From: an uncultured Clostridia bacterium
GTDB lineage: Bacteria > Bacillota > Clostridia > TANB77 > CAG-508
Assembly (NCBI GenBank): GCA_934177485.1
Contig: CAKPPF010000005.1
Coordinates: 11,241 to 75,240 of the forward strand
Direction of reading: 5' to 3'
Length of the DNA stretch: 64,000 bases
This document shows positions 53,155 to 61,903 of this stretch, piece by piece. Every line of letters starts with the position of its first letter. The stretch's first letter is position 1. The notes under the pieces were generated by a model that had not been told where the DNA came from, searched no databases, and saw only the letters and a program-made list of their open reading frames with translations. A program made the translations under genes and the position numbers.

Positions 53155-53865
53155 TTATATATTTTTATATTTTCTATAAGATACATAAGATGCTAATGCT
53201 ATTGCTCCAAGTGCTATTACTAATAATATATTTACATCTTCTATACCTGTTTGTGGTAATTTTTTAGTGTTAGAATTATTAGACTTGTTAGAATTACTAT
53301 TAGACTTACCACTATTATTATTGTTTGTATTACTGGAATTATTGTTACCATTATTAGTATTATTGTTATTATCTTCATTGTTTCCAGCTGTTGTGTCATC
53401 AGCTTTAATAGTAACTATTACTGAATCATTAGCAACATTTACATTTTCTTGTTGAGAATTTTCATTTACTAATGCTAATGTTACATTTGAAATACTAATC
53501 TCAGTTGCTCCTTCAGCTGCATTATCCAAAACCTTAAATGTTATTGTATATAATGTTCCTGATTTTGACAAGTTTTCACTGTTTGTTGATACAATTGAGA
53601 TTTCTTTGCTACCTGATAAATCTGAAAAACCTGTTCCAGCTTTTTTATTGTCTATTTCTAACTTACTTGTGTCATAGCTAAGATCTGCTTTTAATCCTGT
53701 TATGTTTCCATCTGCTGTTCCTGCAAGTGTTATTGTAAAAGTTTTTCCTTTAAGAACGCTGTCAGAACTTGCACCAAAAGATATATTTCCTGTTGCTGCT
53801 TTTACAGTTATAGCCATGGATATAATAAAAATCATTGTTATTATTGAAACTAAAACTTTTTTCAT
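53155..53865 (-). CDS. Cell-wall-anchored cohesin-domain protein (LPQTG sortase substrate)
   Basis: Signal peptide. Cohesin-like beta-sandwich segment (KADLSYDTSKLEI ... TLYTITFKVLDNAAEGATEISISNVTLA). Asn-rich linker. LPQTG + TM + RKYKNI. Confidence 0.75.
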   Translation of the reverse strand: MKKVLVSIITMIFIISMAITVKAATGNISFGASSDSVLKGKTFTITLAGTADGNITGLKADLSYDTSKLEIDNKKAGTGFSDLSGSKEISIVSTNSENLSKSGTLYTITFKVLDNAAEGATEISISNVTLALVNENSQQENVNVANDSVIVTIKADDTTAGNNEDNNNNTNNGNNNSSNTNNNNSGKSNSNSNKSNNSNTKKLPQTGIEDVNILLVIALGAIALASYVSYRKYKNI

Positions 53866-53948
53866 TTTTTACCTCTCTTTTCTTATTTTATAGTATATAC
53901 ATATTGTTAAATAAAATCAAGTTTTTTTTGAATTTTTAGGTATCTTCG

Positions 53949-60000: not shown

Positions 60001-61903
60001 TCATATATTTCATATGAGAAAAATCAATCTTTTCCTCTAATATGTATGAATACTTTGTTTCTTCTAATGTTTTTTTACTAATTTTTATGACTTTAATTTG
60101 GTCACCTTTTACGCAGTATGTAGGTTTTGATAAATCCTCTATTGCTTTATCATTTAATTCAAATTTATATATATATCCATCACCATTATCTATTGCAGTT
60201 CTCTTTAATGAAATATTATTAGCTATTATTTCATTTAATTGTTCAGATTCATTTTCTGCCAAATCTGTCACAGTTCCATTTAGTACTATTAGAGCTTCTC
60301 CTCCATCAGCTTCTGATATATCATATTGGTAAACTATTTTTGTACTATCTTCTGAAAATGTTTTTGTATATTTTCCTTTTCCTTCTATTCCTCCAAAAGA
60401 TATTTGTAGGGTTGTATTATCTTTACCAATTTTTTCGCTAAATGTTGCCTCAACTGTTATTAAGTTTTCATTTTGATTAGCAACACAATTTATTAATGTT
60501 GGTTTTTCTTTGTCTATCCATGTTACATGTAAATCAACTATTTTACTATTTCCTGCTTTATCAAAGTATGTTATATCTTCTTTTCCGTTTTTATCGAATT
60601 CAATTTTGTAAATTTTATTATACTCTTTTGCTGTAGATGTTTTAACATCTTCATCAAATGTTATAATTGCTGTTACATTTTGATTTGTAGGTTGATCGCT
60701 GTTAGGAACATATTCAACTTCACAATTAGGTGCTGTTTTATCTATTGTAAAGTAATACTCAGTACATTCGTTATACTTTGAATTTTCTAACATTTTTCCA
60801 ACATCGGTTAATTTTACTGCATCAGTTGTTATTTTATATGTAATTAATTTGTATTCTCCATCATCCTCTAATTCTGGGAAAAACACATTCCCTGTGTTAA
60901 ATTTTATATAATTGTTTGTATAATAATTTATATCTTTCACTTGTTTATATAAATTAATTGATGGTTGAACTGATTTTGATATTGCTTCTCTAGCTGATTC
61001 CAAGTTAAGGTCATTTATATTCAAGTTTATATCATTAGCATCAGCAAGTGATTTCATTTCTTCTAAGATTTCATTGTCAGCTGGAAGATTTACTGCAGCA
61101 TTTAGATACAACTGTACATCATCAGCTGATATTTTTCCATCAAAATTATAATCTGAAATCATTTTTGCTACTAGTATTCTACTTTTTTCTTCTTCTGTTC
61201 TATTTTCATTGCCAATATCTCTATTAAATACATCAATTCCTAGTCCTAAAGATAGTCTTAAAACAGCTCTTGCATCATTTACTTCTATATTAAATCCTTC
61301 CATTATATTATCATCAGAACTTGGATTTAATTCTACAAGAGGGTTTCCAATATAATAAGGATGTGCTTCGCCGTTATTTGTCTTATATCTTGCTGCTGAA
61401 TATAGAATTATTTGATAATCTACATTGTTTATCAATCCATCTCCATTTATATCAGCAACTATTTTTTGCAATGCGGTTAAATCATTTTCTCCTGCTAAAT
61501 ATCCCCATATTAAGGCTGCATCATATTCATTTATTTTTCCATTATTATCCACATCACCTAACATATATTTATATGTCAAATTATTCTTTTCATTTGTATA
61601 AGTTTCCCATTTGCCTTCTGAATTTCTCCTTTGAAGTTCAACATATCTAATGTTGTCATCTCCAGTTTGCGGATAAATATTAATATTTGTATTATAGTAT
61701 TTTGTTTCATTTTCTGCCGTTGCAAGGTCTTTACCTGTAACGCTTGTCGCAGACATTTTATTGGTAGCTAATTTTCTTATAGTTAATTCGCTTCCTTTGT
61801 AATTAGCCATAATGCCAACTATGAGCATTAATACTACCGCTATCGTAGTAACTATAAATGCAATAGTTTTTCTTTTTGAATTTGTTATGATTTTGGATTT
61901 CAT
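54026..61903 (-). CDS. Giant (2,626 aa) surface protein with an N-terminal signal-anchor, two N-terminal and one C-terminal dockerin modules, and >15 Ig-like/Big-type beta-sandwich repeats
   Basis: Dockerin Ca-binding repeats: DVDNNGKINEYDAALIWGYLAG, DINGDGLINNVDYQIILY, DYNFDGKISADDVQLYL, and C-terminal DVNGDGKVTFLEDVVMANNYRIG / DINNNSTIDFIQDIVAINNYRLG. AAGAGGT RBS before the ATG at 61903 (track start 62020 is upstream). Confidence 0.8.
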   Translation of the reverse strand: MKSKIITNSKRKTIAFIVTTIAVVLMLIVGIMANYKGSELTIRKLATNKMSATSVTGKDLATAENETKYYNTNINIYPQTGDDNIRYVELQRRNSEGKWETYTNEKNNLTYKYMLGDVDNNGKINEYDAALIWGYLAGENDLTALQKIVADINGDGLINNVDYQIILYSAARYKTNNGEAHPYYIGNPLVELNPSSDDNIMEGFNIEVNDARAVLRLSLGLGIDVFNRDIGNENRTEEEKSRILVAKMISDYNFDGKISADDVQLYLNAAVNLPADNEILEEMKSLADANDINLNINDLNLESAREAISKSVQPSINLYKQVKDINYYTNNYIKFNTGNVFFPELEDDGEYKLITYKITTDAVKLTDVGKMLENSKYNECTEYYFTIDKTAPNCEVEYVPNSDQPTNQNVTAIITFDEDVKTSTAKEYNKIYKIEFDKNGKEDITYFDKAGNSKIVDLHVTWIDKEKPTLINCVANQNENLITVEATFSEKIGKDNTTLQISFGGIEGKGKYTKTFSEDSTKIVYQYDISEADGGEALIVLNGTVTDLAENESEQLNEIIANNISLKRTAIDNGDGYIYKFELNDKAIEDLSKPTYCVKGDQIKVIKISKKTLEETKYSYILEEKIDFSHMKYMKLIDKKDENESNRAEFYTTDKEKKNIDITQANIYFDTVAPTVAINVGVDVANENNVYTKGTNLNISAVASEIIPNAEETIPQINVLFSNSGLGKDNFQTDSKKGNARLVDITEEDGKTVWKYIYTIQNGDDGDVIIDYASDIEIRDIVGNKSLLAATPKEITDGEVKLDQTIDEINTVSYEIYKNDKQLTDFKKATYFEDGDKIKVIVKFKNALYNGDNGKLINKNEAPILYIETSANEKINMSAQQVNESGNTITYEYTIKDLKNSKLMNMYMYSNVTMWPNVAKWPDTDKSLHNPIGPGNIAPIDINNCNLFIYNSNTEIDTGKIKTDTTAPTVKISAKNIDTNEIIENGLTNASEIEYSFKWSEEVFGFTIEDLTIINGTPKELIQDENDKTLYTLVVKNDIADGSNGTIKVIVNRDAVKDIVGHSNERFENEIRVDRQAAILIGLEAYAENEIKVNSEVDSVKRYYKAGEKVTIIATFNENINLVDDKVPDLALKFAESGNAKNNVELPEKIDGNKIIYTYVLADNDNGELSVKGFTGNVVDAAGNKTVVTKRALDGDTIIADTISPNLKELKIISPASGIYKAETVVAVEAIFDEEVYVLENNEIKNVTEKTAPIVNIKIGASEEISLSFSEYGTNNGKIDKTKLVYTYRIRGEEKDEQGKLTYNGDNGIVSIVKIENVQNAQVCDIAGNIATLTVNQTGNEINVDTIRPYVDSITATVENPLILGTDPYYKAGNDIKITLTFSEKVNSAKIQPKILVGFSENADQKPQSYSEYSYESDWNVNSTTVEYTYTIKDGDNGYLWVEVPEGQFADAAGNSNTAKDAQIIKNIYADTTAPYVAVNTDGTAKWNIEYIKNEDGQITGIKAEGMFNEIIYSMSENTLTDLTYIPVMGIFINGNLEDTAENPKVEQENGQTKLTYEKDITKIDKTGNISVNLISGTVYDRAGNIWSIDLGNGDTTSPIFKDIKVVTPIGFYNKGKVIEIVARFEEQTKLTNVPKLKIRLGDTVKELDGSYDKYDIENTENIKVARYSYTIVDENGALNIISLIGKVSDGLRERDIKQIYIDENKDEINGKANELLNSIETNYANSSDENSNVIADTIRPYVTSIVAMVGDNEIATYTKEEGKDAVITVGRTNANSIKYIVTMSEDIFLSNVDKILVTNGNVINVKRTDKNIFTIDVQATTEGVQSLILQDGVAEDRAGNLNEFARLDGVTIDFTCPLVRFISEYNGGEYVIPTNIGKIEIRPNIEINEEISKVEYKWDEEEFTEVKNYSSSSDIAIPSKTFEETGKYTLYIKATDLAGNQTITNKVYIVYYSSISFDYNDEYTNKDLEVKVEFGKGLTDNRKVLFKANNSKDIVQLNAIGTDGDKIKYSIPENGILYAEATDKVGNKVFNQTTITNIDKESPIVKLETNGGNLVIGTGKDKATIKSIINVEDENLSSIEYAITNINTSVENVTPENIKENAGLSFTTIENYSEAKIENAVEGTYYIYVIAKDKAENTTIYKSEAFTVANSNKLKGENGEVIYAPAAENTIKFTREKSIVYVDFGYNLSENQRITLTNDEDGIVYENNAEIFKSTVVTATAEDICGNSVKMTYTVENVEGPKFEVQGDLEHWTNEDIELNVISYDNLSALTVNGEDILKNKMKVIIKENGDYTFKATDIYGNSTEKIIKVSNIDKVKPVISKVEVNGNDITITANDELSGLSEYAVTKTTEVPVEWSSSNTISTTKDGTFYVWAKDKAGNITIGENTAVVDTTAPTITFEYMSLTVTVGMPIEANIKTNELAKISYSWDNKTWIDSNEFNTSIKVSEKSTKPGKYTLYAKAIDTANNASEVTKVEFSVENIEDIRQPEIIFEDLAIIQINGVKYVKISPNTTKELLTDKMNKTALCGVTPEYKNLTEDGKLKTGSEILLNGETKYIIAVKGDVNGDGKVTFLEDVVMANNYRIGIISLSTVQKLASDINNNSTIDFIQDIVAINNYRLGIIKEL

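Follow-up and report, generated by a model that had tools for sequence, protein, structure and literature searches.

Cohesin–dockerin pairs are familiar mainly as the adhesive that holds cellulosomes together, and an adjacent pair of cohesin and dockerin genes in a locus with no evident polysaccharide-degrading context raises the question of what is being glued to what. We consider this question for a 64,000-nucleotide stretch of contig CAKPPF010000005.1 from an uncultured Clostridia bacterium (hereafter, the window). Its minus strand carries two co-directional open reading frames (ORFs), 54026–61903 and 53155–53865, 160 nt apart, exactly as claimed by an earlier interpretation of this DNA made from the letters alone (hereafter, the sequence-only reading); the first encodes a giant dockerin-bearing surface protein, and the second a small cohesin protein with an LPQTG sorting motif. 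In the interpretation that we favor, and consider likely on the basis of sequence comparison and analogy, the small protein is a sortase-anchored cohesin that docks the giant by its C-terminal X module and dockerin, as ScaE docks CttA in Ruminococcus flavefaciens. In this case, cohesin–dockerin glue appears to fix a giant, non-enzymatic, hypervariable fiber to the wall of an abundant, low-GC lineage of uncultured gut Clostridia.

The cohesin assignment for the downstream gene, proposed by the sequence-only reading, is supported by sequence, predicted structure and structural comparison. The Pfam Cohesin model (PF00963) matches amino acids (aa) 39–150 of the 236-aa protein with 40.3 bits against the cut-off of 24.1. 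In the AlphaFold model, built from a 20-sequence alignment, aa 22–158 form a beta-sandwich with the predicted local distance difference test score (pLDDT) above 90, and, according to AlphaFold and Foldseek, this is the nine-stranded (jelly-roll) cohesin fold. The leading Foldseek matches in the PDB are all cohesins (E-values down to 2e-8, target-normalised TM-score up to 0.77, 13–22% identity), the top ones being 4ums (type I ScaB Coh7), 6kgc (CaCohA2), 5lxv (ScaC), and the Clostridium perfringens non-cellulosomal cohesins 2jh2 and 2vo8. No PDB entry was retrieved at E<0.01 when the cohesin alignment served as a sequence profile, and thus the protein represents a divergent cohesin family.

The remainder of the small protein is that of a sortase substrate, with an N-terminal signal peptide, the LPXTG motif, a hydrophobic helix, and a basic tail. 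The Asn/Ser-rich stretch following the cohesin (aa 159–201) has pLDDT <50, in line with the Asn-rich stalk described earlier, AlphaFold models aa 161–226 as disordered, and the C-terminus reads LPQTG-IEDVNILLVIALGAIALASYVSY-RKYKNI. This sorting signal, also recognized from the letters alone, exceeds the cut-offs of both Gram_pos_anchor (PF00746, 24.7 bits vs. 20) and TIGR01167 (23.4 vs. 15.9). An alignment of 20 homologues shows no variation in Q, T, and G of LPQTG and hardly any in L and P; one homologue (P0025, from locus L007) has IAQTG instead. The protein collection contains 217 homologues of the cohesin protein; the 120 listed are all approximately 230–270 aa long and share the same architecture, and the precomputed Pfam Cohesin annotation concurs for nearly all of them. 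In current nomenclature, such a small cohesin protein is a “nonSLH-anchoring” monovalent scaffoldin (PMC11557425).

The giant comprises 2,625 aa counted from the ATG at 61903, one residue fewer than initially given, and the identical product is called on public contigs. Scanned as a whole, it matches Pfam Dockerin_1 (PF00404) with 43.4 bits against the cut-off of 22.9. Two dockerins had been proposed at its N-terminus, and only the first one is confirmed: when scanned separately, aa 115–166 score 41.1 bits with Dockerin_1 and match PDB entry 8x39 (phmmer, E = 2.8e-12) along with many type I dockerins. The second claimed module (aa ~195–330) has no Pfam match at E ≤ 1, finds only weak calmodulin EF-hand matches in the PDB, and aligns with the dockerin profile over just 18 columns, that is, a single Ca loop (hhalign, probability 4.5%); by inspection, approximately 17 extra residues separate its canonical loop from the degenerate one. 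It is at most a decayed half-dockerin; the helical region at aa ~195–275 is kept in proteins P0142 and P0289. The dockerin proposed at the extreme C-terminus stands: approximately aa 2561–2607 alone score 24.7 bits with Dockerin_1 (cut-off 22.9), and the module aligns over its full length with type I dockerins, e.g., Xyn10B (2ccl_B, E = 0.006), with a one-residue insertion per loop, each of its Ca loops having 13 residues, one more than canonical. The profile hidden Markov model searches that had been named in advance as a way to refute the domain assignments support the cohesin, the sorting signal of the LPXTG type, and two of the proposed dockerins.

The C-terminal dockerin is preceded by an X module, the sole confident part (pLDDT ~80–87) of an AlphaFold model of the last 234 aa, which was built from a 6-sequence alignment and has the mean pLDDT of 47.9; Foldseek comparison of this low-confidence model gives weak FN3/PKD-type matches at E ≥ 0.01. 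Between the N-terminal and C-terminal parts lies an array of immunoglobulin (Ig)-like domains, split by a recurring D-x-x-x-P boundary motif into approximately 20 segments, which agrees with the earlier count of more than 15 repeats. The array is heterogeneous, with three detectable internal repeat sub-families; Big_12 (32.5 bits), Y_Y_Y (27.3 bits), and the NCBIfam OmpL47-type domain (47.2 bits vs. 40) are above the cut-offs, and Big_5, Big_13, PKD, and DUF4625 matches are sub-threshold. Domain searches detect no catalytic domain in the giant, in line with the sequence-only reading, which saw no carbohydrate-active one; they also detect no glycoside hydrolase (GH), carbohydrate-binding module (CBM) or polysaccharide lyase.

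The pairing of the two genes is conserved. In total, 15 distinct related loci were collected, the window included, and in all 15 the AI-2E transporter gene is followed by the giant and cohesin-LPXTG genes. On contigs long enough to include it, rnc comes next, except that L023 has one additional 150-aa gene in front of rnc. The genome matches are metagenome-assembled genomes of uncultured Clostridia/Clostridiaceae from human gut samples. The homologous giants range from 1,869 to 4,363 aa, begin with MKSK..KIQ and classical signal peptides, and have variable lengths and N-terminal heads, yet all end in the X module and dockerin. The giant gene of L020 is present as two ORFs (1,424 and 941 aa), and either pseudogenization or faulty assembly could be the reason. 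An exhaustive HMMER search with the C-terminal 141 aa retrieves 693 representative clusters at E ≤ 1e-3, of which 103 remain at E ≤ 1e-10 and 34 at E ≤ 1e-30. The aligned region is almost always located at the extreme C-terminus, and most of the 34 clusters are giant proteins. In the 103 clusters, the X module and dockerin travel as one 141-aa C-terminal unit. Dockerin-like pairs with canonical 12-residue loops occur at varied internal positions of the homologous giants P0151, P0152, P0155 (twice), P0164, P0174, P0175, and P0199, and differ from the 13-residue-loop C-terminal dockerin of the family.

The evidence linking the cohesin to one particular dockerin comes from their co-divergence. 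In a mirror-tree test, where pairwise identities of each segment over the 15 loci were correlated with those of the cohesin domain, the C-terminal dockerin yielded r = 0.86 (Mantel p = 1e-4), compared to 0.45 for the X module, 0.24 for the body of the giant, and, within the cohesin protein itself, 0.45 for the signal peptide and 0.31 for the sorting tail. In an earlier test on 13 loci, the correlation was 0.06 for rnc and 0.22 for the AI-2E transporter, and the partial correlation of the cohesin and C-terminal dockerin, controlled for the X module and body, was 0.82. Segments closer to the cohesin domain than the dockerin thus correlate much less, and linkage alone is not a sufficient explanation.

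Comparison of individual loci shows the same. At the DNA level, L006 and L008 are approximately 90–100% identical across the body of the giant, flanking genes, spacer, and cohesin signal peptide. Identity falls to 50–65% in the X-dockerin and in the cohesin core, two distinct blocks that are kept apart by the 95–100% identical spacer and signal peptide. The window and loci L016/L026 apparently come from the same species, as their flanks are 97–100% identical; their cohesin domains, however, are 54% and their C-terminal dockerins 57–58% identical, whereas between L016 and L026 the respective values are 97% and 99%. On this comparison, the giant gene is a recombination mosaic (window positions 53155–62000 vs. 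L016/L026, 40–95% identity, whole blocks replaced), and a mosaic within apparently one species marks a hypervariable surface locus.

At least four matched classes of cohesins and dockerins are visible in these sequences. In class A, the cohesin has ..AGTADxNITG..AGTGFSDLSG, and both dockerin repeats have the helix motif NNYR(I/L)G; the respective features are ..AGVSDTPIDGMYTK.. and NS(I/Y)RLGK in class B, ..AATADTNVIGLKAN.. and NRYRI in class C, and ..QGYFDAS.. and N(N/D)YRIG in class D. The class replicates L008/L015 (class B) and L016/L026 (class C) show the same pairing, and a change of class alters the helix motif in both dockerin repeats alike (NNYR, NS(I/Y)R or NRYR), which fits a dual binding mode. 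The C-terminal dockerin is therefore the likely partner of the adjacent cohesin, as far as sequence comparison can tell. By contrast, the N-terminal dockerin is approximately 93% identical between the window and L016 despite their differing cohesin classes; it does not co-vary with the cohesin, and thus probably has another partner.

Several observations weigh against the proposed docking. The C-terminal dockerin passes the Pfam cut-off narrowly, has atypical 13-residue loops, and is modelled poorly by AlphaFold (pLDDT 24–39). No sortase genes are found in the 10-kb flanks of the related loci. No ligand-binding domain is identified in the head of the giant, and its adhesive function is suggested by architecture only. 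The X-dockerin also occurs on leucine-rich repeat (LRR) and transglutaminase-like proteins, and hence the giant need not be the only cargo. Finally, ~230 nt of DNA separate the C-terminal dockerin and cohesin modules, and recombination tracts covering both therefore add to their correlation; when the window is compared with L016, divergence runs without a break through the dockerin, spacer, signal peptide, and cohesin.

The co-divergence could, alternatively, be a by-product of linkage. One hypervariable recombination hotspot (e.g., under phage or antibody pressure) would then extend from the 3' end of the giant gene into the 5' part of the cohesin gene, the modules would not bind each other, and the dockerin-like repeats would merely stabilize the protein with Ca2+. 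The whole locus is indeed a recombination mosaic in otherwise near-identical genomes and, to our knowledge, many non-cellulosomal dockerin-like modules have no known partner. Still, a hotspot does not account for the weaker correlations of the signal peptide, sorting tail, and X module compared to the dockerin, for the two divergent blocks of L006/L008 separated by a nearly identical segment, or for both dockerin repeats changing the motif together with the cohesin class. We consider such an origin of the correlation distinctly unlikely.

The presence of the same tail on other proteins raises another possibility, namely, that numerous surface proteins with dockerins share the LPXTG cohesin as a common docking post, the giant being one cargo among others or even a minor one. 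The X-dockerin tail is found at the C-terminus of several BspA-type LRR_5 proteins and one transglutaminase-like protein (P0177, P0184, P0192, P0193, P0198), as well as shorter Big_12 proteins, and ten other sampled X-dockerin proteins contain LRR_5, Big_12, Big_3 or transglutaminase domains, or have the dockerin as the only recognized domain. Moreover, the LRR protein P0177 and the L008 giant have the identical class B tail ..ITMINSYRLGKITISI, and Sca2 of Ruminococcus bromii is known to bind dockerins of amylases, a peptidase, and an LRR protein (PMC4611034). On the other hand, the strict adjacency in all loci examined and the co-divergence with the giant's own dockerin argue for the giant as a principal partner, and in L024 (positions 6026–10504) an LRR_5 gene with an X-dockerin ORF resides in another chromosomal context with no cohesin nearby. 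Thus, a post for which the giant is just one of many cargoes seems unlikely; a wider range of cargoes is, however, compatible with docking of the giant, as an extension of it.

Known cohesin–dockerin systems of gut Clostridia usually organise glycoside hydrolases (PMC4611034, PMC12997984), and therefore a cellulosome-, amylosome- or mucinolysome-like complex has to be considered, with the giant acting as an adaptor that recruits enzymes via partners of its N-terminal dockerin. The additional, non-co-varying dockerin of the giant would suit this role, and the genome was viewed over 64 kb only. However, dockerin-bearing enzymes could be recruited by a dockerin only through an additional cohesin, which the giant lacks; the window and the ~20-kb related loci show no GH, CBM, polysaccharide lyase or multi-cohesin scaffoldin; and none of the ten other sampled X-dockerin proteins has a carbohydrate-active enzyme (CAZyme) domain. 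We regard an enzyme complex of this kind as highly improbable. The cellulosome reading was rejected, given the single cohesin in the window and no enzymes, CBMs or multi-cohesin scaffoldins in the window and related loci; this agrees, as far as visible, with the view of the sequence-only reading that the system is not a cellulosome.

The closest parallel to the favored docking of the giant on a wall-anchored cohesin is found in R. flavefaciens, where the X-dockerin of CttA binds the cohesin of ScaE, anchored to the wall by a sortase motif, and the N-terminal modules of CttA bind the substrate (PMC4266597). The architecture is the same in the window: a monovalent cohesin with a C-terminal sortase motif and, as predicted here, covalent wall anchoring, and a non-enzymatic cargo with a C-terminal X module and dockerin, whose N-terminal end would point outwards for adhesion. 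Homology is not supported, as ScaE itself (type III, 2zf9) ranks only 45th among the fold matches, with the target-normalised TM-score of 0.43, and no CBM is detected. Unlike ScaE, the present cohesin is closest in fold to compact type I and C. perfringens-type cohesins; unlike CttA, the cargo is a 2,625-aa Ig-repeat fiber lacking CBMs and having an additional N-terminal dockerin; and, unlike both, the pair has no cellulosome context, consists of dedicated adjacent genes in a housekeeping neighborhood, and swaps matched specificity classes within a species. The present pair is analogous to ScaE/CttA but does not belong to the same family.

Other LPXTG cohesin anchors are known, namely, Sca2 of R. 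bromii (amylosome, PMC4611034) and cSca5 of Limousia pullorum (mucinolysome, PMC12997984). They similarly combine a single cohesin with a C-terminal sortase signal into a surface docking post of gut Clostridia, and the dockerins bound by Sca2 include those of non-enzymatic proteins, e.g., LRR proteins (PMC4611034). However, Sca2 and cSca5 dock glycoside hydrolases in multi-scaffoldin networks, whereas here no enzyme cargo is seen, and the evident partner is the neighboring giant. The non-cellulosomal modules of C. perfringens are also similar in being cohesins and dockerins outside cellulosomes, and 2jh2, 2vo8, and 2w1n are among the best fold matches, but those modules reside on secreted glycosidases that associate mutually, rather than on an LPXTG anchor and a giant fiber.

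Gram-positive fibrillar adhesins are LPXTG proteins with long Ig-like or Cna_B stalks, covalently anchored to the wall. The giant resembles them, and the Cna_B/SdrD_B giants at 19–31 kb of the window, in the long Ig-like stalk that presents a distal head. Unlike them, it has no sorting signal of its own, the anchoring being left to the separate cohesin protein via what would be a non-covalent, exchangeable junction.

From the domain identities, cohesin fold, conserved synteny, and specific co-divergence we infer physical binding, sortase attachment, fiber orientation, and adhesive function, which could be combined as follows. The 236-aa protein would be secreted, and sortase would link its LPQTG motif covalently to peptidoglycan; the disordered Asn/Ser stalk may then span the wall, letting the single cohesin reach beyond it. 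The secreted giant would bind this cohesin by its X module and C-terminal dockerin in a non-covalent, Ca-dependent manner, and the near-symmetric repeats of the dockerin suggest a dual binding mode. Approximately 20 Ig-like domains would project as a long fiber with the variable N-terminal head outermost, most likely serving as an adhesin or a surface coat with no enzymatic role. The N-terminal dockerin at the distal tip probably recognizes a partner other than the adjacent cohesin. Matched cohesin/C-terminal dockerin specificity classes would be exchanged jointly by recombination, even inside one species.

A further interpretation, which we offer tentatively and hold to be on balance doubtful, is that the cohesin and C-terminal dockerin fit each other like a lock and key specific to the strain. 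Matched specificity alleles, in at least three to four classes, would be maintained and swapped within species, so that each strain retains its own giant only (privatisation or kin discrimination of the shed fiber), while the conserved N-terminal or internal dockerins would join the fiber tip to a second cohesin on other cells or proteins, yielding an extracellular, non-enzymatic network that governs aggregation or host attachment in these uncultured gut Clostridia.

While the anchoring principle is already known from rumen bacteria, we found no description of this cohesin-anchor/giant-fiber family in the literature search. New features are dedicated gene pairs for a cohesin anchor and a giant fiber, which form a large family of divergent sequences in uncultured gut Clostridia, spread over a broad lineage as judged by the 217 cohesin homologues and the 34 X-dockerin clusters at E<1e-30; no polysaccharide-degrading context around the pair, as far as inspected; and the within-species exchange of matched cohesin/dockerin classes in a hypervariable surface locus. 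The latter suggests that cohesin–dockerin specificity can be polymorphic inside one species. If the binding is true, the pair provides a simple model for display and exchange of a main surface antigen or adhesin, and the co-evolved classes A to D would supply candidate orthogonal binding pairs for protein engineering.

The features of the locus are listed in Table 1.

Table 1. Features of the giant/cohesin locus (positions in the window; amino acid positions in the respective protein)
Feature	Position	Strand	Description	Evidence
Giant surface protein gene	54026..61903	-	Stop codon at 54026-54028	ORF and translation
N-terminal secretion signal	61802..61903	-	aa 1-34; Lys/Arg-rich start, then a 21-residue hydrophobic stretch; cleaved signal peptide or signal anchor	
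N-terminal dockerin	61394..61570	-	aa ~112-170; two canonical 12-residue Ca loops, DVDNNGKINEYD and DINGDGLINNVD	
Helical region	61079..61321	-	aa ~195-275; one intact EF-hand-like loop, DYNFDGKISADD; degenerate first half, ..NDARAVLRLSLGLG	
Ig-like array	54455..60742	-	aa 388-2483; ~20 divergent Ig-like beta-sandwich domains	
X module	54224..54454	-	aa 2484-2560; small alpha/beta domain abutting the C-terminal dockerin	
C-terminal dockerin	54029..54223	-	aa 2561-2625; near-symmetric repeats ..FLEDVVMANNYRIGII / ..FIQDIVAINNYRLGII	
Intergenic spacer	53866..54025	-	160 nt; no terminator-like hairpin; similar spacing in related loci	
Cohesin-LPQTG gene	53155..53865	-	236-aa monovalent anchoring scaffoldin (signal peptide, cohesin, stalk, LPQTG)	
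Cohesin domain	53392..53796	-	aa 24-158	Pfam, AlphaFold, Foldseek
Stalk	53263..53391	-	aa 159-201; Asn/Ser-rich, low complexity, strain-variable length	
Sorting signal	53158..53259	-	LPQTG (aa 203-207), hydrophobic helix, YRKYKNI tail	
Palindromic hairpin	53110..53143	.	Between an A-run and a T-run, 12 nt 3' of the cohesin stop codon	

The hairpin downstream of the cohesin gene (one found vs. 0.2 expected) probably is a bidirectional terminator closing the two-gene unit. Its presence after the cohesin gene, and the lack of a hairpin between the genes, is consistent with a bicistronic unit. Rfam detects no structured RNA in the window. The gene pair is flanked by the AI-2E transporter gene on one side and by rnc, a radical-SAM gene, yitT, ogg, gatCAB, and rpsL-tuf on the other. 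A mobile-element or phage origin was considered and rejected, given the housekeeping neighbors and chromosomal synteny. Neither a sortase domain nor a TLxTC motif is present in the 64-kb window, and the cohesin is the only member of its family found there.

Two other giant surface proteins are encoded on the minus strand of the window, a 2,404-aa one with six Cna_B domains, SdrD_B, and DUF11 (19332–26546) and a 1,536-aa one with DUF11 and SdrD_B (26724–31334). Both lack a dockerin and have a terminal transmembrane helix that follows HPPTGD or SIKTGS in place of the canonical LPXTG; the junction of the two genes is spanned by a 121-aa ORF (26452–26817). No Pfam match was found for the window ORFs 4033–5736, 12767–14179, and 16588–17469.

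The order of housekeeping genes differs between the window and some relatives. In L004 and L021–L023, ogg is directly followed by minD-minE-rodA-dus-ydcC-pemK, whereas in the window the minD-to-pemK genes are at 6–12 kb (6000–12200), approximately 36 kb from ogg (48798–49685), and the interval contains gatCAB, rpsL-rpsG-fusA-tuf, two parE toxin genes, a penicillin-binding protein gene, ksgA, and the Cna_B giants. Such a gene order points to either a large insertion or a rearrangement. Toxin-type genes found among the housekeeping genes of the window encode two ParE proteins (38123–38449 and 38776–39102), PemK/MazF (7182–7535), and a Fic-domain protein (14925–15971). Upstream of the AI-2E transporter, an Exo_endo_phos gene is present as ORFs of 168 and 80 aa in window-type contigs, including L001 (minus-strand positions 63423–63665 of the window and upstream), but is undivided, encoding 251 aa, in L020 and L021, and hence the window form may be a conserved frameshift or a pseudogene.

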